From Patescibacteria group bacterium (GTDB lineage: Bacteria; Patescibacteriota; Minisyncoccia; Phycocordibacterales; JACZSL01): DNA of 64,000 nt. Of the stretch, positions 3,838-20,514 are shown one piece after another (position 1 is the stretch's first letter; each line of letters opens with the position of its first letter). The notes beneath the pieces were generated by a model. It searched no databases, was not told where the DNA came from, and saw only the letters and a list, made by a program, of their open reading frames with translations. Position numbers and translations under genes: made by a program. The DNA is taken from contig JACZSL010000001.1 of NCBI GenBank assembly GCA_022574205.1, positions 5,447-69,446 of the forward strand, written 5' to 3'.

Positions 3838-5115
3838 GTGAACAGAATATATCTTGTACTGCTTGCAGTGCTTTTCGCGGTTGTTCCATTTACTGTTGCC
3901 GCTCAGGGCGTTTGTGAAGTCAGAGAGGTGAGTACTGTTGTGGTGTTTGGCAATGGAATTAACACTCCCGAAAAAGATGCTTACGACTTACTTGAGGTAT
4001 TAGAAAAACGTTTAGAGGCAAAACTGCCAGCTGATAAGTTTGAGGGGCTGGAGTTTAACATCGCCTACAATCGCACTGCGGGAATCCTGCTTGACCTCTT
4101 GGAAGCTGCAAAAGACAAGTATCTAATCGATGCAACCAGAGAAATCAGAGATTTCTCAATTGCTTTCTGGAGAGCTCTTGGATACTTGGATATTCTTCCG
4201 GATTGGTTTCAGGAGGCCGCATTGGAATCTGCTGAAAGTCTTACCAGTGCTTCGCTTGTAAACGACAGGGATTTGAGCAACCATTTGGCTCTCTATCGTT
4301 CGAGCATACTTGAAGGCAAAACCGTGCTTTTGGTCGCTCATTCTCAAGGCAATTTCTTTGCCAACAGAGCGTATGAAATTCTCTATGAGGGCTCAAATCC
4401 GATAACAACACAAAGCTTCGGCATAGTGTCAGTCGCAAATCCGTCAAGTTTTGTCGGAGGAAACGGCCCTTATTGGACACTTCATGAAGATGAGGTGATT
4501 AAGAGCGTTGCAAGATGGTCCGCAAGGTTTCTACAACCACCTCCTCTTGTTTCTAACATCGGTAACGACCCAAATGCAGAGCATGATTCATTGACCCACG
4601 GTTTTGTGACATCATATCTTGTAAGAGGAACTAATAGTGAAGAGAAGATTCTCGCTGGCATCGAGACGAGTATTGGGATGCTTGAAATTCCGTTTCCTGT
4701 TGCAGAAGACGGCATTATCACTGTAACGCTTACATGGGGAGTAGAGCCTGACGTTGACCTGCACGTGTTTGAACCAAACGGAACACATGTCTACTATGCC
4801 AATCGATTCGGAATTTCCGGATTTCTGGACGTGGACGATGTTACGTCGTTTGGCCCGGAGCATTACTTTGTCGGGTGCGACACTCTGGAAGAAGGTATGT
4901 ACCGGATTGGTGTCAACTACTTCAGAGGCTTCAATCCTGAAGTTGCACTCGTGCAAATACAGGCAGGCTTTATCATACGAAGCTTTGAGACTCCGCTTGA
5001 AACAGCTGTCGGCTCTTCGGGCAATAACTCACCGATTCTTGTCGCTGATGTTATTGTCGGCATAAACGCCGACGGCGTCTACGAGTTTAGTATAATGTCC
5101 CTTGGTGTTCAGTAG
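3838..5115 (+). CDS. secreted alpha/beta-hydrolase (lipase/esterase/cutinase-like nucleophile elbow AHSQG) with C-terminal beta-sandwich (pre-peptidase C-terminal-like) domain
   Basis: Signal peptide MNRIYLVLLAVLFAVVPFTVAAQG. The nucleophile elbow is LVAHSQGNF. The C-terminal segment TLTWG.EPDVDLHVFEPNG is PPC-like. Confidence 0.6.
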   Translation: MNRIYLVLLAVLFAVVPFTVAAQGVCEVREVSTVVVFGNGINTPEKDAYDLLEVLEKRLEAKLPADKFEGLEFNIAYNRTAGILLDLLEAAKDKYLIDATREIRDFSIAFWRALGYLDILPDWFQEAALESAESLTSASLVNDRDLSNHLALYRSSILEGKTVLLVAHSQGNFFANRAYEILYEGSNPITTQSFGIVSVANPSSFVGGNGPYWTLHEDEVIKSVARWSARFLQPPPLVSNIGNDPNAEHDSLTHGFVTSYLVRGTNSEEKILAGIETSIGMLEIPFPVAEDGIITVTLTWGVEPDVDLHVFEPNGTHVYYANRFGISGFLDVDDVTSFGPEHYFVGCDTLEEGMYRIGVNYFRGFNPEVALVQIQAGFIIRSFETPLETAVGSSGNNSPILVADVIVGINADGVYEFSIMSLGVQ

Positions 5116-5170: not shown

Positions 5171-5205
5171 CCCCACCTGCGCAAGCGCGGGTGGGGGTTT
5201 TTGTT
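5171..5205. terminator. bidirectional hairpin ccccacctgcgc-aa-gcgcgggtgggg + T-run
   Basis: Perfect GC stem followed by tttttg. It sits between the hydrolase gene (+) and a small minus-strand ORF. Confidence 0.6.
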
Positions 5206-5218
5206 TCGCACCGAGAAC

Positions 5219-5368
5219 TTAATTCTCTTTGTTGTGCTTCACAGGAGAAAAAGTGGCCGAGTTGCGGTGAGACCAGGTTTGCGTCTGCGGGTCGTATTGA
5301 CCCCGAACAGCACCTGAGATCTTCGATAGCAACTGTAGCGCCACGGGTTTTGTGGGCTTGTTCAACAT
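5219..5368 (-). CDS. possible small ORF (49 aa, MLNKPTKPVALQLLSKISGAVRGQYDPQTQTWSHRNSATFSPVKHNKEN)
   Basis: GAGGA lies 8 nt upstream of the ATG, and the ORF ends at the shared terminator. It is divergent from the ATP-grasp gene and has no recognisable family. Confidence 0.2.
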   Translation of the reverse strand: MLNKPTKPVALQLLSKISGAVRGQYDPQTQTWSHRNSATFSPVKHNKEN

Positions 5369-5547
5369 GAGAATATCCTCAAAGTCAGTTTAGAAAGAAC
5401 AAACCAAACGTTGTTGTACACAACAAAAACATCTGGACCCATGAAGTGTGACATAATTTATAGTTTCTATCAATATGTTGACATATTGATATTTTATAGT
5501 ATTTTGTAACTAGATCATTATGTTTACAGCTTAGAGGAGTAGCAGCA

Positions 5548-6489
5548 ATGACTATCTTCATAATCACCCATCAGGCAGGATTTGAGGTTGATCCAGTTAT
5601 TGACAGATTAAAAAGTCTCAAACTTCCTTTTGTTCGCTTTAATCAGGACGATGGCGACAATATTTCTAAAGTCGGATTTCTTCGGTCAGATAGCAAGGAA
5701 AATATCTTTTGGACTAGCGACAATAAATCAGTTTCTTTAACCAATGTTGGTTGCGCGTGGTTTCAACAACCCCCGCCATTCACTGGGCAACCGGATAATT
5801 TTGAACAGGCTGTACAAAGAAACAATTTAATAGCATTTCTTGAAGCCACGTTTGACTTTTTGCCAGTAAAATGGCTTAACAGGGTAGCAAACGCGCGTCG
5901 AGCGGCAAATAAAGTTTTGCAGCTACACCTTGCTCCCTCAGTAGGATTAGCAGTTCCGAATACATGTATTTCAAATGACCCACTTACAGTACGCTCGTTT
6001 TGTTCCAAGGGACCGAGTATTGTTAAAAATCTCAATTCCTCATGGATAGCACAGGAGAATGATGCCGTCGTGTCCTCCACAAAGTTCGTGCAAGATGACT
6101 ACATAAAAGATGACCAAGCAATTATATTCTGCCCTCTCATATATCAACAATTCATTGAGAGAAGATATGATTACCGTGTAGTTATACTGGGAGACGCAAC
6201 GTTTGTATCTCGGTGTGATTCAACACTTGGTGATCCCGCAGATGTACGCGTTGACAACAAAACGGGAGCTAACTTCTACCGGGATAAAATACCTCCTGAA
6301 TATATTGAAAAGCTCAAAAATCTAATGGAGATCTTGGGTGTCGACTACTGTTCTGCAGACTTCATTGAGGACCGCGGAGGCAAAATCTTCTTTTTGGAAA
6401 TGAATATCTGCGGTGCCTGGTGGTGGATGGATGAACTCCATGGGGGTGAAATACTTGATTCTTTCGTGAAATACCTGACAACTCGATGA
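5548..6489 (+). CDS. ATP-grasp ligase, RimK/MdnC-like (RiPP/graspetide-maturase type)
   Basis: The N-terminus TIFIITHQAGFEVDPVIDRL and C-terminal FFLEMNICGAWWW resemble the ATP-grasp peptide maturase fold (E-x-N...W). Confidence 0.55.
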   Translation: MTIFIITHQAGFEVDPVIDRLKSLKLPFVRFNQDDGDNISKVGFLRSDSKENIFWTSDNKSVSLTNVGCAWFQQPPPFTGQPDNFEQAVQRNNLIAFLEATFDFLPVKWLNRVANARRAANKVLQLHLAPSVGLAVPNTCISNDPLTVRSFCSKGPSIVKNLNSSWIAQENDAVVSSTKFVQDDYIKDDQAIIFCPLIYQQFIERRYDYRVVILGDATFVSRCDSTLGDPADVRVDNKTGANFYRDKIPPEYIEKLKNLMEILGVDYCSADFIEDRGGKIFFLEMNICGAWWWMDELHGGEILDSFVKYLTTR

Positions 6490-6571
6490 GCCATCAAGAT
6501 GTGTTATCAGCGGTGGTGTGTACACTTCACATCACCGCTATTTTTTAACATATTAAATATTAAAGCAACCT

Positions 6572-7090
6572 ATGAAACTGCGAGAACAACTGGATAAAAT
6601 AATACATATTAACAAAGGTGAAAATTGGTGGAAGCCAAGGTTATTTAAAGATATAACACTCCCACAGCTTCCGAAAGAATTAAAGATTCTTGAATTTCCA
6701 CCTCTCAAAAACAATAATTACAACTGTTTTATTCATACACTCGGTCTCTCCAAGGATGTTGGAATTATAAAAAATAGTGGCGGTTTTATTTATGACACTT
6801 TTTTCCAAAAATTGATTGATAAAAAGGCGCTTATCCCTACAGACCATCCCAAAAACGGAGACTATATTTTATACAGAGACTCCCAAAATTATCCCGACAA
6901 AATCACCCATTCAGGTGTTCTTGACAATGGGAAAGTGGTGTCAAAGTGGGCGTGGGGACCACTTTTGTGCCATGACGTTTTTGATGTTCCCGCGTCTTAT
7001 GGAGACGAGATTTCTTACATAAAGGCAGTCGATCATAAAAAAGCACGGGATCTCTACTGGAAGTATAAAAAGTTTAATAAACTTCCATAG
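6572..7090 (+). CDS. papain-fold (NlpC/P60- or CHAP-like) Cys/His hydrolase candidate
   Basis: Candidate Cys sits in NCFIHTLG. Downstream, GDYILYR....ITHSGVLDNG resembles the GD..ff....HvgIy His motif. Confidence 0.35.
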   Translation: MKLREQLDKIIHINKGENWWKPRLFKDITLPQLPKELKILEFPPLKNNNYNCFIHTLGLSKDVGIIKNSGGFIYDTFFQKLIDKKALIPTDHPKNGDYILYRDSQNYPDKITHSGVLDNGKVVSKWAWGPLLCHDVFDVPASYGDEISYIKAVDHKKARDLYWKYKKFNKLP

Positions 7091-7433: not shown

Positions 7434-8351
7434 GTGACTACCATAGAACAATTAAAAAAGAGTAAAAATATATATGACATTAAGGCGGTTAAACTGACCA
7501 GCTGTATTGGTTTGCTAAAGAAAAGATGTACATCTGAAGTTTTGCGTGAAATAACTAAAAATTCACGATTAATTAATGTTTATGACATTACGTATCGCTC
7601 ACAAGGACATAAAGTTAAAGGTTTTATTGTCGAGCTAAAAAAACTAAAAGGGAAGTTACCATGCATTATTTATAATCGTGGCGGGTCGGGAGAATTTTGC
7701 GCAATTAAAATCGGGGAAACATTTCTGCGGTTGGGTAGGTTTGCCAAATGGGGATACATAGTTATAGCTTCACAATATTCTGGAAACGCGGGAAGTGAAG
7801 GTAAGGATGAAGTTGGCGGAAGTGATATTGAAGACGTTTTAAATCTTAAAAAGATATTAAAAAACCATCTGCACGCTGATGAAAAAAGAATCGGTATGTT
7901 TGGTATTAGTCGTGGAGGGATGATGACATATTTATCTCTTGCGAGAGTAAAGTGGCTAAAAGCAGCTGTATCGATTGCAGGACCAACAAATTTTAAGCGT
8001 GAAGAAAAGTTGAGGCCAGATATGAAGCGGAGGAACAAAATGTTCTTTGGGGGAAGTAAAAAGGCGCTTAGAGATCGTTCTGCCGTTTATTGGACTGATA
8101 AATTTACCAAGAAAACACCACTTCTCATGCTTCATGGCACTGCGGACTGGCGCGTAAGTCCGTTGGATTCGTTGGATTTGGCAGAAAAGCTTTATGAAAA
8201 TAAGGTCCCGTATCGCTTAATTATGTACGAAGGTGCAGATCATGGATTAAGTGAAGTTCGTGAAGAGGCAATGCTAGAGGTCAGAAAATGGTTTGATAAA
8301 TATCTAAAAAATAACGGAAAATTACCTGATTTAAAACCACACGGCAAATAG
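7434..8351 (+). CDS. S9-family (prolyl oligopeptidase/acylaminoacyl peptidase-like) alpha/beta serine hydrolase
   Basis: The nucleophile motif is GMFGISRGG. LMLHGTADWRV and EGADHGL form the Asp/His part of the triad region. Confidence 0.65.
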   Translation: MTTIEQLKKSKNIYDIKAVKLTSCIGLLKKRCTSEVLREITKNSRLINVYDITYRSQGHKVKGFIVELKKLKGKLPCIIYNRGGSGEFCAIKIGETFLRLGRFAKWGYIVIASQYSGNAGSEGKDEVGGSDIEDVLNLKKILKNHLHADEKRIGMFGISRGGMMTYLSLARVKWLKAAVSIAGPTNFKREEKLRPDMKRRNKMFFGGSKKALRDRSAVYWTDKFTKKTPLLMLHGTADWRVSPLDSLDLAEKLYENKVPYRLIMYEGADHGLSEVREEAMLEVRKWFDKYLKNNGKLPDLKPHGK

Positions 8352-15825: not shown

Positions 15826-17118
15826 CTAGGGTGTAACGTATTCTATTTGCCTAAGCCCAAAATCGTTCGGACCACGGTCGAGGATTATCGTATCAGCGAC
15901 TGGCGGGGAAGTAGGGTCTGGCGCTTTGGCAACCTCTTCTGTCGGAGGCGCTTCCGGCATTTCTTCTTCGGTTTCCGATACCTTTTTCGGCTTGAACTTA
16001 ATAGGAATACCGCCAGGATCAGGCGTCGCCACAATCCAAGTATTGCCTAAGAGCGCTCGAGTGAAGGATTTTCCGTCGGTAATTGCACCACCTCCACCAA
16101 ACCCTGCAACAGAACGTTCAGATGAAAATGCCTTTGAAATGCTCGTAAGAAGATTGAGTCCACGGCCGCCTGTCGTGACACTGCGGTTGGCAGTCACTGA
16201 CTCCGGCATCGCCACAAGGTTAATTTCCCCAACGCCTTTTACATACCTCAAGACATACTTTGCAACGTCTGCTTGTATTGCCCCCAAGGGATTTATTTTC
16301 TTTGACTCTGACTCTGCGGTCACAATCCCAAGGCACTTCTGCGATCCTTCCGGCAATAAAAACCTCACCGTGTCAGCACGGCTTTTTCTTGCTTTAGCCA
16401 CGAGGTTCTGGTGTGGGACAAAAACAATGCGCGTGCCGCCAACCTTTCCTTCCTCCGGTATAAGAGGCTTACCGCGAGTATACTGCTGTTCGCACTCAGA
16501 GTTAAACCACTCTGCCAACCTTATTCCTCCTTCGGCTGCGTCCACTGACTCATTGAAGAGCTGTGGTTCCGGCAAAAATGGAGTACTGACATGCAGTATA
16601 CCCGGCAGTGGTTCGGGCGAGACAAACGTAACGGTCTGCGTTGGAGCAACATTTACGTCTCCGGTGGAGACGTTTACGTCACCTGTGGTGAGACTCACGT
16701 CGCCGTCGTTAACCGTCACACTTTGGTCACCGGTTCTTATCGCGCCATCAGCAATATTTACGCTGCCGCCAGTTGCCGTGGCACTACTACCTTCTACGTT
16801 AACCGTGTTGCTATTATCGTTCTTGTTAACGTTTTTGTTTTTGATGTCGATATCGTTCTTGTTAACGTTTTTGTTGTGAATGTCGATATCGTTCTTGTTA
16901 ACGTTTTTGTTGTGAATGTCGACTGTGGCACTACCCCCATACGCGGTCGATTTAGCAACCGCTTTCGCGCTTTGGCTTTGCTTCTGACCCTGCTTTTGCT
17001 TCTGTTTCTGACTCTGCTCCTGATTTGGAGCCGACGGTTTGTATCGATCATCTGCGAACGTGGTTGTCGACGCGAAAAGCGCAATAACAAACAGTACAAA
17101 CAACATTTTTGTATTCAT
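15826..17118 (-). CDS. secreted protein with KQ-rich region and 12-aa tandem repeats (DIHNKNVNKNDI x3)
   Basis: The signal peptide is MNTKMLFVLFVIALFASTTTFA. The repeats and low-complexity region are read from the translation. Confidence 0.55.
   Translation of the reverse strand: MNTKMLFVLFVIALFASTTTFADDRYKPSAPNQEQSQKQKQKQGQKQSQSAKAVAKSTAYGGSATVDIHNKNVNKNDIDIHNKNVNKNDIDIKNKNVNKNDNSNTVNVEGSSATATGGSVNIADGAIRTGDQSVTVNDGDVSLTTGDVNVSTGDVNVAPTQTVTFVSPEPLPGILHVSTPFLPEPQLFNESVDAAEGGIRLAEWFNSECEQQYTRGKPLIPEEGKVGGTRIVFVPHQNLVAKARKSRADTVRFLLPEGSQKCLGIVTAESESKKINPLGAIQADVAKYVLRYVKGVGEINLVAMPESVTANRSVTTGGRGLNLLTSISKAFSSERSVAGFGGGGAITDGKSFTRALLGNTWIVATPDPGGIPIKFKPKKVSETEEEMPEAPPTEEVAKAPDPTSPPVADTIILDRGPNDFGLRQIEYVTP
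16815..16922 (-). repeat. 36-bp tandem repeat x3 inside the 15826-17118 CDS
   Basis: The units are tatcgttcttgttaacgtttttgttKtKaatgtcga. Confidence 0.85.
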
Positions 17119-17234: not shown

Positions 17235-17283
17235 CTACCTTTAAAACAGCGTTATTTTCTGGTACTATTTTGCCGATGGCAGA
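17235..17283. repeat. 49-bp direct repeat, copy A (ctacctttaaaacagcgttattttctggtactattttgccgatggcaga)
   Basis: About 85% identical to 19518-19568. It covers the last 11 codons of the 17252-17764 gene and includes a degenerate trpS-like start ATGGCAGA. Confidence 0.8.
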
Positions 17284-17764
17284 GAAGGGATTGCTTTATT
17301 CCTCTTTTATATTTTTCAAGTGAGGGAAGACCGAGTGACTCTCGTCGCTTATCTACATTTTTTTCGTCTCTTATGGGTAGAAAAGCAACGCTACCATTTT
17401 TTACTTTGTATTGTGTGCCGTACATTTGCTCACCACCTGAAATTACTTTAATTTTATCTACCAACATCGCCTCATCTTTTCTTTCTACATTTGAATCATT
17501 CTGTCGGTGCATTTCTAAGTATTGCTTCATAAGGGGAATATCACCAGAGTGTAGAACCAATACTAACATTGCTTTATATGTGTTTTCTCCGTATTGCTTT
17601 GTGACAATACCATGTTGTTTAAGAATTTGTTTAACCCTTGTTGTATTCTTTTTCACTCGCTCCAGCCAGATTCGTCTGTCAATTTTGCGTTGAGAAAATG
17701 CAGCGATTATTTCTTGATCGTTTTTGAGAAGCCCTCTTAGCTCTTTGATTATATCTTTCGTCAC
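17252..17764 (-). CDS. hypothetical protein (170 aa), last gene of graspetide cassette
   Basis: GTG start. Its C-terminus is encoded by repeat copy A. No family recognised. Confidence 0.45.
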   Translation of the reverse strand: MTKDIIKELRGLLKNDQEIIAAFSQRKIDRRIWLERVKKNTTRVKQILKQHGIVTKQYGENTYKAMLVLVLHSGDIPLMKQYLEMHRQNDSNVERKDEAMLVDKIKVISGGEQMYGTQYKVKNGSVAFLPIRDEKNVDKRRESLGLPSLEKYKRGIKQSLLCHRQNSTRK

Positions 17765-17783
17765 ATTCTCATTCTACAAAAAG

Positions 17784-17813
17784 GGCCGCGAACACACAAA
17801 CGTGTTCGTGGCC
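17784..17813 (-). terminator. hairpin ggccgcgaacac-acaaac-gtgttcgtggcc followed (minus strand) by cttttt
   Basis: Sits directly after the precursor ORF and 6 nt before the next gene start. It looks like an attenuator. Confidence 0.5.
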
Positions 17814-17853
17814 TTGCTGGTTACCCTAATCACCGACTGATTTGTCGTGTCGG

Positions 17854-18009
17854 TTAGATGGTGTCACTACAATCGGAATAAGGATCCTTCGTGTCGGTTT
17901 CCATCGCAATGCCAGGTTCACTGGCATCTGCCACATCCACCTCAACTTGTTCCGCAAATTGAAACATGAAGGGGTCCAGCGGTGTTGAAGGATCGTCGCT
18001 CTTTTTCAT
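17854..18009 (-). CDS. candidate graspetide (microviridin-like) precursor peptide, 51 aa: MKKSDDPSTPLDPFMFQFAEQVEVDVADASEPGIAMETDTKDPYSDCSDTI
   Basis: GGAGA lies 5 nt upstream of the ATG. The leader has PFxFxF like the PFFARFL motif. The C-terminal core TDTKDPYSDCSD is T/K/S/D-rich. The ORF is 75 nt downstream of the ATP-grasp gene. Confidence 0.5.
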   Translation of the reverse strand: MKKSDDPSTPLDPFMFQFAEQVEVDVADASEPGIAMETDTKDPYSDCSDTI

Positions 18010-18084
18010 ACATTTCTCCAATCGGCCGTGTTGATTCAGAGTCGTTGTAGCTTCAGATTTACTCTAACAAAAACTTGTTACTTG

Positions 18085-19095
18085 TCAACCGTGTAATAAG
18101 TCTATCAGAGCTTGCGAAATCGGTAGCCCCACCTCAAGTTCGGATGGTAGCCATTGTCCTTGAGGGTTAATTTCAAAGAATGTATAACCATCTCTTTCTG
18201 AATAACCTAAATCTATACAACCAAAGACTAGCCCTAGCGAAAAAGTTATATCACGGCAGAGTGCCGCAATCTTAGTGGGGAGAATATGCTCGGAGTAAAT
18301 TCTGCGATAGTTATGATGTCTCCAATCAACGCCATGGTTGTATCCATAAAGAGATTCGCCCACAATTTTTACTGCAAAGACCTTTTTACCCACCACCGTA
18401 ACGCGTACATCAAATTCCTTTTTTACCTCCTCCTGTAGAATAAATGGGCAGAGAGGAATACTGTCCAGATGTGCCTTAATCACTTTTTGCGACACCCGTC
18501 TAGTATATATGACTCTATTAAGCCTCTCCTTATCCTCTTTTGCGGGATTCAGTCGCACAAAACTACTGCAAACAGGTTTCACTATCATGGGCTTACCACT
18601 AAGATGTTCCAAAAAAGCAAGTGCCGCCTTCCGAGAATTACCAACACACGTTTCAGGGATACGCCATCCGATGCGTTGTGCAACGTGTAGCTGGTATGGC
18701 TTACGACCAGATATTCTTGTTGCCTCAGGCTCGGAAACCCACCTCACACCGTTGAGTAAGTGTGGAAAAGACCTTACGTATGCTTCCGTCTCCTCCAATA
18801 TATATCTCTCTTTCATGTCATAAGGCTCAGCTCGGTACTTGCCGCGAGGACGTCGCCACCAAACGCTCTTAACATTCTCCACAGAGAAGTTAGCGGCACT
18901 AGTGAGGAACCTTCTGTCTGGGCCATTTTGTCCGACTAGATACGATGATTCGAAACCATTGGGGTATCCACCTATGTCAAGTGTGACGTGGTCAACTCCA
19001 CGCTGATTCATTCTCTCTTGCACATATTTTGCGTGTGCGTCAAGAGAATGAGAAACAATTAAAACAGTGTTCTTCTGCATTTCAACTCTCCTCAA
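18085..19095 (-). CDS. ATP-grasp ribosomal-peptide maturase (MdnC/MvdD-like)
   Basis: N-terminus TVLIVSHSLDAHAKYVQERMNQRGVDHVTLD. ATP-grasp C-terminal motif TFFEINPQGQW. Confidence 0.65.
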   Translation of the reverse strand: MRRVEMQKNTVLIVSHSLDAHAKYVQERMNQRGVDHVTLDIGGYPNGFESSYLVGQNGPDRRFLTSAANFSVENVKSVWWRRPRGKYRAEPYDMKERYILEETEAYVRSFPHLLNGVRWVSEPEATRISGRKPYQLHVAQRIGWRIPETCVGNSRKAALAFLEHLSGKPMIVKPVCSSFVRLNPAKEDKERLNRVIYTRRVSQKVIKAHLDSIPLCPFILQEEVKKEFDVRVTVVGKKVFAVKIVGESLYGYNHGVDWRHHNYRRIYSEHILPTKIAALCRDITFSLGLVFGCIDLGYSERDGYTFFEINPQGQWLPSELEVGLPISQALIDLLHG

Positions 19096-19410
19096 GGTAC
19101 AGTAAATAAACTGAGCAGATTATACTCTGTTTATGTATTTTAGTCAAGGTTTCCGCAATGGTTCAATGGCATGTAATCGAACCTTGAGTATGTTGGGATT
19201 TGTTGTGTGTGCCGTATACCTTATTTTAGCCTCTAAGGTGATGCAAAGGTATTGAAACATTACGGCTTCTTAACAATGACTGATAATGTTTCAGTAATTT
19301 AACGCAGAGGAAAGCAAAAGCTCCGTGCCGTAAGGCGCGGGGTTTTTTGTAAAGAGTGTAGCTTTTGGAGATTATATGTCACAGAAAACATTCCAAACTC
19401 TCTTGAGAGT

Positions 19411-19473
19411 TGGAATGAGAATCCTTGATTTAATCCTTGATTTAATCCTTGAATTAAATCAAGGATTCTTTTG
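19411..19473. repeat. composite palindrome agaatccttga-(tttaatccttga)x2..-attaaa-tcaaggattct + T-run
   Basis: 11-bp inverted arms with internal direct repeats. It sits near the right end of the cassette, between the divergent ATP-grasp and trpS genes. Confidence 0.7.
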
Positions 19474-19517: not shown

Positions 19518-19568
19518 CTACCTTTAAAACAGCGTTATTTTCTGATACTATTTGACCATTATGGCAGA
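19518..19568. repeat. 49-51-bp direct repeat, copy B (contains the real trpS ATG)
   Basis: Matches 17235-17283. Its reverse strand would read VCHNGQIVSEN*, a degenerate copy of the 170-aa protein's C-terminus LCHRQNSTRK*. Confidence 0.8.
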
Positions 19569-20514
19569 CAAGCAAAGACTACTCTCTGGCATCAAGCCGA
19601 CAGGGAGACTCCATATAGGTAACTATTTCGGCGCTATGCGGCAGTTCGTTGAACTGCAGGATAAGTATACAAGCTATATTTTCATCGCTGATTACCACGC
19701 ACTAACTTCGGTACAAAACGCGGAGAGTCTTCAAGAGCTCATATTAAACACCGCTATTGATTATCTTGCAGTCGGCTTAAATCCCAAAAAAGTAGTACTT
19801 TTCAAGCAGTCCGATGTACCGCAACATACAGAGTTAGCATGGATTTTTAACTGTATTACTACAATGCCATATTTACAGCGCTCCCACGTATTTAAAGATG
19901 CGCAGGCAAAAAATAAAGAGATTGATGTTGGAACATTTGTTTATCCGATGCTTATGGCGGCAGATATTTTGCTCTATAGTCCGGACGTGGTGCCGGTGGG
20001 TGCTGACCAGAAGCAGCATATTGAATATGCGCGGGACACAGCGCAAAAGTTTAATAATATTTTTGGAGAAACATTTAAACTTCCTAAAGAGTATACGCCA
20101 AAAGACAGCGCAACAATTCCTGGAGTTGATGGGCAAAAGATGAGTAAGAGCTACAATAACACAATTCCGTTGTTTGGCTCGAGGGATGATGTAGAAAAAG
20201 CAGTAATGGGTATTGTTACAGATTCAGGGGGTGATTTTCCACAGCACGTGTACGCAATACACAAGCTCTACAAAAGTGAGGACGAGCTAAAAAATGTCTA
20301 TGATGATAATAAGGGTAACTATAAAGCTTTAAAAGAAGCCTTAATAGCAGATGTTGAAGAGGTCGCTCGACCACTACGAGAAAAGCGTGAAGAGCTCACA
20401 AAAGATAAGGCATATGTCCTCTCTGTGTTGAAAGAGGGTGGCAAGATAGCGCGTGAAATAGCCGAAGAAAAAATGAAAGAGATTCGTGAAAAAATTGGTG
20501 TAACGTTGCAATAA
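19561..20514 (+). CDS. trpS: tryptophanyl-tRNA synthetase
   Basis: Class I motifs TGRLHIGNYFG and KMSKS; size about 318 aa. Confidence 0.9.
   Translation: MADKQRLLSGIKPTGRLHIGNYFGAMRQFVELQDKYTSYIFIADYHALTSVQNAESLQELILNTAIDYLAVGLNPKKVVLFKQSDVPQHTELAWIFNCITTMPYLQRSHVFKDAQAKNKEIDVGTFVYPMLMAADILLYSPDVVPVGADQKQHIEYARDTAQKFNNIFGETFKLPKEYTPKDSATIPGVDGQKMSKSYNNTIPLFGSRDDVEKAVMGIVTDSGGDFPQHVYAIHKLYKSEDELKNVYDDNKGNYKALKEALIADVEEVARPLREKREELTKDKAYVLSVLKEGGKIAREIAEEKMKEIREKIGVTLQ

Follow-up and report, generated by a model that had tools for sequence, protein, structure and literature searches.

This study concerns three adjacent genes in a 64,000-nucleotide stretch of DNA, hereafter the window. The DNA belongs to a metagenome-assembled genome (MAG) that NCBI names Patescibacteria group bacterium, an ultra-small organism not in culture. 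The genes encode, in this order, an ATP-grasp ligase, a peptide of 51 amino acids and a DUF6624 protein. All three are annotated by NCBI as hypothetical proteins (locus tags IID26_00120, IID26_00115 and IID26_00110, respectively). The ligase stop codon lies 75 nt ahead of the small open reading frame (ORF), and 40 nt separate the stop codon of that ORF from a GC-rich hairpin. Every feature of the cassette is on the minus strand. An earlier, sequence-only reading had proposed a microviridin-like precursor peptide downstream of its ligase and followed by an attenuator-like hairpin. Our analysis indicates that the three genes very probably form a compact graspetide cassette of a Patescibacteria (candidate phyla radiation, CPR) bacterium. 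Graspetides are ribosomally synthesised, post-translationally modified peptides (RiPPs) with omega-ester or omega-amide bonds.

The ligase and its predicted precursor

The genes of the cassette, and the parts of the precursor, are as follows; dN/dS is the ratio of non-synonymous to synonymous substitution rates.

18085-19080, minus strand: graspetide-type ATP-grasp ligase (macrocyclase), 331 amino acids, ATG start (MQKNTV...); from Pfam, NCBIfam and PDB matches
17854-18009, minus strand: predicted graspetide precursor gene, 51 amino acids plus stop; conserved next to the ligase gene, dN/dS 0.11
17950-17973, minus strand: predicted leader recognition motif, P13-F-M-F-Q-F-A-E20; aligns with the leaders of relatives
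17857-17901, minus strand: predicted core peptide, E37-T-D-T-K-D-P-Y-S-D-C-S-D-T-I51; from counts in 46 precursors
17252-17764, minus strand: DUF6624 protein, 170 amino acids, GTG start; Pfam PF20329, E 1.6e-16

Upstream of the ligase ATG, position 19095, which the sequence-only reading had taken as its boundary, is an in-frame TTG. The same reading had described an MdnC/MvdD-like N-terminus and an E-x-N..GQW motif in the ligase, and both are present. The N-terminus matches the MvdD pre-ATP-grasp domain of Pfam (PF21068; E 2.7e-10), exceeding its gathering score. The motif reads FFEINPQGQW and is invariant in 30 homologues. Searches with NCBIfam models gave E-values of 3.3e-58 for TIGR04187, 6.5e-49 for MvdC and 1.2e-40 for MvdD, compared with 5e-11 for RimK and 3e-10 for LysX. 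Matches to TIGR04187, TIGR04185 and TIGR04184 were full-length. The bit scores for RimK (TIGR00768; 42, cut-off 143) and LysX (39.5, cut-off 276) were far below threshold. No glutathione synthetase match was found.

A profile built from 30 ligase homologues matched only graspetide ligases among PDB sequences: MdnC (7e-48), MdnB, AMdnB, CdnC, PruB and PsnB. The AlphaFold model of the ligase is confident (mean predicted local distance difference test score, pLDDT, 90.2). Its 31 best fold matches in the PDB are all chains of graspetide macrocyclases, with template modelling (TM) scores of 0.64-0.82; LysX, ArgX and RimK appear from rank 32 on. Similarity to MdnC, MdnB and AMdnB is high in fold (TM about 0.8) but only 22-25% in sequence identity. 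Hence, the ligase groups with RiPP macrocyclases, and not with RimK or glutathione synthetase. We conclude that it is a RiPP-type ATP-grasp macrocyclase by sequence and by fold.

Relatives were collected by locus scans of genome and metagenome collections, which gave 35 and 57 loci, respectively (labelled L001 and so on). Their sources are Hainich and other aquifer samples. The clade of the window ligase contains about 86 distinct sequences (90% clusters) with 36-61% identity. Almost all are from Patescibacteria, and a gap in score sets them apart from more distant relatives. The closest relative, locus L036/L044, has a ligase 61% identical to that of the window.

The small ORF encodes MKKSDDPSTPLDPFMFQFAEQVEVDVADASEPGIAMETDTKDPYSDCSDTI. 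A homologous ORF of 40-70 amino acids adjoins the ligase gene in every clade locus with sequence at that place. Two loci depart from this: in L061 no such ORF was found, and in L015 it is frameshifted. In all, about 50 related Patescibacteria loci have precursor and ligase genes side by side. Among ten close orthologues, dN/dS was 0.11 in the precursor frame but greater than 1.7 in the other two frames. Variable sites at codon positions 1, 2 and 3 numbered 18, 15 and 44 in the whole precursor, and 2, 2 and 13 in the core. When 1.84 billion proteins were searched exhaustively with phmmer, four further small homologues were identified. One 1635-residue match, with no aligned stretch, was disregarded, and a word-index search returned only the query itself. 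We conclude that the 51-residue ORF is a real gene, which is conserved, evolves under purifying selection and accompanies the ligase. The sequence-only prediction of a graspetide precursor downstream of a RiPP-type ATP-grasp ligase is therefore supported by the grouping of the ligase and by the conservation and selection of the ORF. Judged from its sequence, the small ORF is the predicted precursor of the cassette ligase.

The precursor family was aligned, and positions counted, using 46 distinct sequences. Briefly, each precursor has an N-terminal leader motif and a core at the extreme C-terminus. The family leader is P-[ILF]-[TLM]-[FL]-x-x-[AS]-[EQ]. In the window it reads PFMFQFAE, which aligns with PLLFLFAE and PLLFDLAE in the closest relatives and with PITFLNAE and PLTFLVAQ elsewhere. 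The version PFMFQF(S/A)E recurs in a distant clade (L043). Across the family, 25-30 residues separate the leader Pro from the core Thr, a constant spacing.

The family core is E-x-D-T-x(5-6)-D-x(1-2)-D-T-x-stop. Five residues are invariant: E37, D39, T40, D49 and T50, which occupy positions -14, -12, -11, -2 and -1. A further Asp, at -5 or -4 (D46 or the next position), is found in every member. Two types of core can be told apart. The K-type, DTKxPxxDxSDT[IV], includes the window; the F-type is DTFIQxSGDSDTN. Lys, K41 in the window, is present in 20 of the 46 precursors, all K-type. The sequence-only reading had listed Thr, Ser and Lys donors, Asp acceptors and a Cys, and these residues are all there. 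The spacing it gave, T-x-K-x-P-x-S-D, is not that of the window, which reads T-K-D-P-Y-S-D (or T-x-T-K-x-P-x-S-D). It had also suggested that a Cys-containing core would be a new graspetide variant. Cys occurs in only 4 of the 46 precursors; it is not conserved and has no relevance for the family as a whole. The precursor of the closest relative, L036/L044, also has the Cys of the DCSDT sequence.

Two hydroxyl donors and four acidic residues are thus present in all members. This pattern suggests two macrolactones throughout the family, with a possible additional Lys macrolactam in the K-type.

Expression signals and the DUF6624 gene

Five candidate expression signals accompany the genes.

19119-19147, minus strand: promoter-like site before the ligase gene, TTGACT, 17 nt, TATAAT, 11 of 12 matches; consensus scan
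18061-18088, minus strand: internal promoter-like site, TTGACA, 16 nt, TAGAGT, with TG before the -10 box, 10 of 12 matches; consensus scan
18015-18019, minus strand: Shine-Dalgarno sequence GGAGA, 5 nt (AATGT) ahead of the precursor ATG; read from the sequence
17777-17813, minus strand: intrinsic-terminator-like element, 12-bp stem with one mismatch, 6-nt loop, then CUUUUUG
17771-17776, minus strand: -10-like hexamer TAGAAT, 6 nt before the DUF6624 GTG, with no Shine-Dalgarno sequence; candidate leaderless promoter

The -10 box of the first site ends 38 nt ahead of the ligase ATG. In the region as a whole, promoter-like sites are not enriched (6 found by the consensus scan, 5.4 expected). The ligase stop codon and the -35 hexamer of the internal site overlap. 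L036 and L037, the two closest relatives, have this site in the same register with 10 of 12 matches; L040 has 8 of 12. At least 10 matches occurred in 1.2% of shuffled sequences. Transcription from here would yield a precursor-only message with a 5' untranslated region of roughly 40-45 nt.

The GGAGA sequence 5 nt before the start of the 51-residue ORF is as the sequence-only reading described it. In almost every orthologous locus, the precursor gene is preceded by an AAGGAG-type Shine-Dalgarno sequence. Just 5' of the precursor Shine-Dalgarno sequence, loci L002-L007, L012, L018, L036 and L021 have a short hairpin without a T-run, for example GGCTAGGGTTCTAGCC. This may be an mRNA-stabilising or processing structure. 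No such stem-loop is found at this place in the window (z = +0.63).

Downstream of the precursor, the 30-nt hairpin at 17784-17813 is GGCCACGAACAC-GUUUGU-GUGUUCGCGGCC, and CUUUUUG follows at 17777-17783. A simple terminator scan missed this element because of the 1x1 mismatch in its stem. The calculated folding energy is -18.7 kcal/mol for the hairpin alone and -30.3 kcal/mol for a 97-nt region (z = -2.2; 7 of 200 shuffles folded as well). A hairpin with T-run occupies the gap between precursor and DUF6624 genes in 17 of 20 loci, compared with 1.1 expected from the density of such sites. Stem sequences vary between lineages; one close group has a conserved stem, in which one pair is compensatory.

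The start of the DUF6624 gene has a different character. A Shine-Dalgarno sequence is absent in 17 of 20 loci. At a distance of 5-9 nt ahead of the DUF6624 start codon, 13 of 19 loci (the window, L001-L007, L012, L018, L019, L037 and L040) have a TAnnnT hexamer that matches in at least 5 of 6 positions; this was so in 5% of shuffles and for none of 19 precursor genes. The ligase genes of the L002-L006 group also have no Shine-Dalgarno site. Such patterns suggest leaderless mRNAs in Patescibacteria. At the DUF6624 gene, the -10-like box and the missing Shine-Dalgarno sequence together suggest a separate leaderless promoter after a true terminator, rather than an attenuator.

The competing model is a leaky terminator, acting as an attenuator. 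Ligase, precursor and DUF6624 would then form one operon, with read-through setting a high ratio of precursor to DUF6624. We regard this model as possible, though not as the favoured one. Similar hairpin arrangements occur after the precursor genes of lantibiotic operons. In favour of the model are also the conservation of hairpin and T-run, the short distance (50-94 nt across loci) from precursor to DUF6624 gene, and the strand, which is always the same for both genes. However, in the 17 loci without a Shine-Dalgarno sequence a read-through transcript would lack a ribosome-binding site for DUF6624, and 13 of 19 loci have the -10-like hexamer at a distance that suits a leaderless start. Both models could hold at once. 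Hence, the GC hairpin and U-run of the sequence-only reading are real, and its attenuator is less likely than a terminator followed by an independent leaderless gene; some leaky read-through is possible.

In the sequence-only reading, the gene beyond the hairpin was simply the next gene. It proves to be part of the system. A DUF6624 homologue lies immediately after the precursor in 19 of 21 loci, and a hidden Markov model sweep confirmed this in further metagenome loci. All-against-all clustering of ORFs from the 21 loci identified only two conserved proteins besides the precursor: the ligase and a protein of 157-175 amino acids. The genes on the flanks are different in every locus. DUF6624-like genes are found, in other orders, in more distant ligase clades as well (33-36% identity; L041 and L043). 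We conclude that DUF6624 is a conserved third component of the cassette, travelling with ligase and precursor. Ligase, precursor, DUF6624 is the usual order in the Patescibacteria clade, so a ligase ahead of its precursor is the norm there, although the sequence-only reading had called it unusual. Three relatives (L050, L054 and L066) have the order precursor, DUF6624, ligase.

In one relative, L038/L039, a serine recombinase or resolvase gene is located directly downstream of the cassette (5204-6760, minus strand). Together with the differing flanks, this is a hint that the three-gene unit moves as a module. The GC profile gave no clear sign that the cassette was acquired by horizontal transfer.

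Eleven DUF6624 residues are invariant among proteins only 28-44% identical: D16, Q17, Y63, H72, D103, Q113, Y115, G116, T117, Q118 and R141. The polar ones among them (D-Q, H, D, Q-x-Y-G-T-Q and R) point to an enzyme or else to an obligate partner. By eye, the alignment shows no signal peptide in the Patescibacteria versions, and the protein is predicted to be cytoplasmic. DUF6624 may thus act on the peptide in the cytoplasm, and candidate roles are leader removal or a further tailoring step. The DUF6624 profile had no match among PDB sequences (best E 0.12) or in NCBIfam, and only noise in PADLOC (E about 1e-3). A word-index search with DUF6624 returned only 3 sequences.

Two bioinformatic surveys bear on this protein. 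Makarova et al. (2022, Biol Direct; PMC8939145) noted that all CPR graspetide loci encode an uncharacterised protein, "cluster 23", in which His and Arg are conserved; we infer that cluster 23 is DUF6624. Carter, Ramesh, Saad, Mubarik and Mitchell (2026, ACS Chem Biol; PMC13097080) expanded RODEO to 43 graspetide groups, and reported DUF6624 at high frequency in groups 18, 20, 23 and 42.

Alternatively, DUF6624 could have no part in biosynthesis and instead protect the producer from its own peptide, through immunity, sequestration or regulation. We think this unlikely. In its favour, the gene is apparently transcribed separately from the precursor, and co-occurrence is strict even though library searches assign no catalytic family. 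Some lantibiotic immunity proteins are lipoproteins. Many cluster 23 homologues in other phyla carry lipoprotein signals (PMC8939145), but the Patescibacteria versions have no signal peptide. Moreover, eleven invariant polar or aromatic residues at such low identity resemble an active or binding site, and Carter et al. suggest that DUF6624 may be a biosynthetic enzyme (PMC13097080).

Proposed mechanism and its alternatives

We propose the following mechanism. By analogy with MdnC, which binds PFFARFL, the ligase would bind the leader at PFMFQFAE (residues 13-20). Using ATP, it would then phosphorylate side-chain carboxylates of the core (E37, D39, D46 and D49). The hydroxyls of the invariant T40 and T50 would attack the activated carboxylates, closing two macrolactone rings. 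In the K-type subfamily, K41 could provide a third ring, a macrolactam. Only one residue follows the last D-T, and this conserved tail suggests that the C-terminal end lies within the ring system. Expression would involve one promoter ahead of the ligase gene and a second overlapping the ligase stop codon. The second promoter, the strong Shine-Dalgarno sequence and the terminator would together yield short precursor transcripts in large amounts. Transcription of DUF6624 is probably driven by its own -10 box, giving a leaderless mRNA, or occurs by read-through. Predicted transcript starts are near 19112 and 18054, roughly 7 nt past the -10 boxes of the two promoters, and at about 17764 for DUF6624; the terminator would place a 3' end at 17777-17783.

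Several points weigh against this proposal. In none of the four graspetide maturase models of NCBIfam does the ligase score reach the curated cut-off (best 197 bits, cut-off 350), and so the ligase is a member of none of those defined families. Neither a leader protease nor an exporter was found in the cassette or nearby, and the conserved cassette includes no transporter and no peptidase. The AlphaFold model of DUF6624 is poor (pLDDT 55.7) and gave no usable fold match. Promoter and leaderless calls presuppose sigma-70 consensus rules, and Patescibacteria may not follow these. The number and topology of the rings are guesses from conserved residues.

It is very improbable that the cassette is a decaying or silent remnant, without a product, in a reduced genome. 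The lack of a nearby exporter and protease would fit such a remnant, as would the state of three relatives. L010, L015 and L018 have split ligase ORFs or a frameshifted precursor, and in L015 the frame changes between leader and core. Either decay or assembly errors in low-coverage MAG contigs would explain these copies. In the window, by contrast, all three ORFs are intact and every family-invariant residue is present. The Shine-Dalgarno sequence, promoter-like sites and terminator are intact too.

Finally, a non-RiPP ligase of RimK, LysX or glutathione synthetase type beside a chance ORF or unrelated small protein is effectively refuted: although RimK and LysX match weakly (Pfam RimK E 0.0034; TIGR00768 5e-11) and JGI automatically names some homologues "glutathione synthase/RimK-type ligase-like", RiPP maturase models score 30-47 orders of magnitude better, PDB profile matches are exclusively graspetide ligases, RimK and LysX follow 31 graspetide chains in the fold ranking, and the ORF is kept in about 50 loci under purifying selection.

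Known graspetides, other features of the window and wider meaning

Makarova et al. had predicted graspetide clusters for CPR bacteria, their Branches 1 and 2 (PMC8939145). Branch 1 comprises Parcubacteria-group ligases of 327-330 amino acids, a leader Phhx(1,2)h and a core TxxxTx(6-10)Dx(1-4)D (PMC8939145). The window agrees in host group and, at 331 amino acids, nearly in ligase length. An accompanying uncharacterised protein with conserved His and Arg is a further shared trait. The Phhx(1,2)h signature occurs within the first 30 residues of the window precursor (P13-F-M-F-Q-F), and relatives have P-I-T-F-L or P-L-L-F-L. Branch 1 leaders such as PLMFLFGE and PLTFEFGE (clusters 1029 and 2658) resemble PFMFQFAE and PLLFLFAE of the window family. 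The window family profile recognised clusters 2658 and 1029, if weakly, at 9.9 and 5.4 bits, and none of 200 shuffles did as well. However, the core signature of Branch 1 is not found; the window family has ExDTx(5-6)Dx(1-2)DTx-stop. Some Branch 1 precursors also lack that signature, according to its authors (PMC8939145). The motifs of the window family do not occur among the 174 consensus sequences of Makarova et al. or in the searchable precursor set of that study (PMC8939145). A protein, P0025, was suspected to be the ligase of cluster 1029; it proved to come from an L004-type locus.

The second published likeness is to group 42 of Carter et al., which comprises 22 predicted clusters, many from candidate phyla, with only the synthetase and DUF6624 (82%) (PMC13097080). 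Its representative, from Candidatus Komeilibacteria, has a Pro-hydrophobic leader and an Asp/Thr-rich C-terminus ending ...GGTD (PMC13097080). Going by this description, group 42 and the window share candidate-phyla hosts and a minimal set of synthetase, short precursor and DUF6624. Both precursors combine a Pro-hydrophobic leader with an Asp/Thr-rich C-terminal core, which ends ...CSDTI in the window. The group 42 representative scored -0.6 bits against the window family profile, no better than shuffles. In the searchable parts of the supplement to Carter et al. (PMC13097080), the window-family motifs are absent. Class, host group and DUF6624 association are thus already predicted by the two surveys (PMC8939145; PMC13097080), and the window cassette fits the published descriptions in host, gene content and leader type. 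The CPR-like host of the sequence-only reading agrees with the NCBI name, and the novelty attached to it is reduced by these earlier predictions. In the literature searched, we found no report of an experimentally characterised CPR graspetide or DUF6624 protein.

Microviridins (group 1; MdnA, MdnB and MdnC) offer a further comparison. The chemistry expected by analogy is the same, with an ATP-grasp enzyme joining Thr, Ser or Lys to Asp or Glu. Leaders in both systems carry a Pro-Phe-hydrophobic motif. PFMFQFAE shares P, F and F with PFFARFL, to which the sequence-only reading had likened it, but the motif itself is not PFFARFL; it fits Phhx(1,2)h, a signature of graspetide leaders in general (PMC8939145). 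Similarly, the K-type core T-K-x-P-x-S-D is reminiscent of the microviridin T-x-K-x-P-S-D. The full microviridin core, T-x-K-[YF]-P-S-D-x-[DE]-[DE], is not found in the window (T-K-D-P-Y-S-D-C-S-D-T-I), where the acceptors are arranged as D-x-S-D-T, not as D-x-(D/E)-(D/E). Microviridins have two ligases, forming ester and amide bonds. The window cassette has one, with the precursor after it, and has no acetyltransferase and no ABC (ATP-binding cassette) transporter. Ligase scores were far below the cut-offs of MvdC (166.8 bits, cut-off 425) and MvdD (139.7, cut-off 475). The window family profile scored MdnA at -1.8 bits, with 149 of 200 shuffles as good. Given the low MvdC and MvdD scores, single ligase, different core and unrecognised MdnA, we conclude that the cassette does not belong to the microviridin class; the sequence-only reading had called the precursor microviridin-like.

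Cluster 23 proteins also occur in Branch 5 of Makarova et al. (Bacteroidota; grasp-with-spasm) (PMC8939145). Grasp-with-spasm systems combine a TIGR04192 ligase with a SPASM radical S-adenosylmethionine (SAM) protein, and share with the window the pairing of an ATP-grasp maturase with a cluster 23/DUF6624-type protein. Against the TIGR04192 model, the window ligase scored 61 bits (cut-off 230). No radical SAM gene was found next to the cassette, nor any CxxxCxxC ORF of at least 150 amino acids in the 64 kilobases (kb), so the window is not a grasp-with-spasm system. In the closest relative, L036/L044, a radical SAM/SPASM maturase gene directly follows DUF6624 (1965-2909), and the distant relative L042 has a radical SAM gene as well (3880-4836). 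Some family members may therefore receive an extra modification, perhaps a thioether, that is missing in the window.

Elsewhere in the window, the gene after DUF6624 (15826-17118, minus strand) encodes 430 amino acids with an N-terminus that, by eye, resembles a signal peptide. This protein, which has no Pfam match, contains a Q/K-rich stretch as well as tandem DIHNKNVNKND repeats and is not conserved in related loci. A second graspetide-type ATP-grasp ligase gene (5548-6489, plus strand; 313 amino acids) lies 12 kb from the cassette on the opposite strand. It matches TIGR04187 (2.1e-44), MvdC (2.4e-37) and MvdD (4e-36), and its best PDB matches are CdnC and MdnB (about 1e-26). The two ligases are only 23% identical and differ in gene context. 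Downstream of the second are a weak DUF7689 protein (6572-7090, plus strand) and an S9-family peptidase (7434-8351, plus strand), with no DUF6624. The metagenome scan found no relatives of this ligase. Divergent from it is an unannotated 49-residue ORF, MLNKPTKPVALQLLSKISGAVRGQYDPQTQTWSHRNSATFSPVKHNKEN (5219-5368, minus strand), with a GAGGA Shine-Dalgarno-like site about 7 nt upstream and, after its stop codon, a GC hairpin with flanking T and A runs (about 5172-5203). This ORF, which is absent from the protein collection searched, is a possible precursor for the second ligase. On the other side of the cassette, plus-strand terminator-like hairpins with T-runs (19300-19345 and 19432-19467) occupy a 456-nt gap upstream of the tryptophanyl-tRNA synthetase gene, trpS (19552-20514). 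They could be a leader, an attenuator or a small RNA; an Rfam search of the region gave no T-box and no other significant match.

A more far-reaching proposal is that the cassette makes an undescribed ring topology, with esters at Thr -11 and the penultimate Thr and an extra Lys amide in the K-type subfamily, and that DUF6624 is a new graspetide enzyme or partner, for example in cytoplasmic leader processing or tailoring. We offer this only as a tentative and rather doubtful idea. If true, the cassette would be the smallest natural system for discovering the function of DUF6624. It would also provide the first experimentally tractable RiPP of a CPR episymbiont, possibly used in interactions with hosts or competitors.

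Whichever role DUF6624 has, the family is a convenient test case, with about 46 natural precursor variants, an unusually clear invariant core, three genes and a DUF6624 protein predicted to be cytoplasmic. Graspetide synthetases of several other groups, too, have DUF6624 beside them. The expression layout, with its putative internal promoter, conserved terminator-like hairpin and putative leaderless third gene, may aid annotation of RiPP loci in Patescibacteria. For CPR graspetides, Makarova et al. speculated on functions in host interaction, competition or offence (PMC8939145). Patescibacteria have tiny genomes with few biosynthetic genes. Hence, a cassette for peptide modification that is conserved in them probably has a bearing on how they live.

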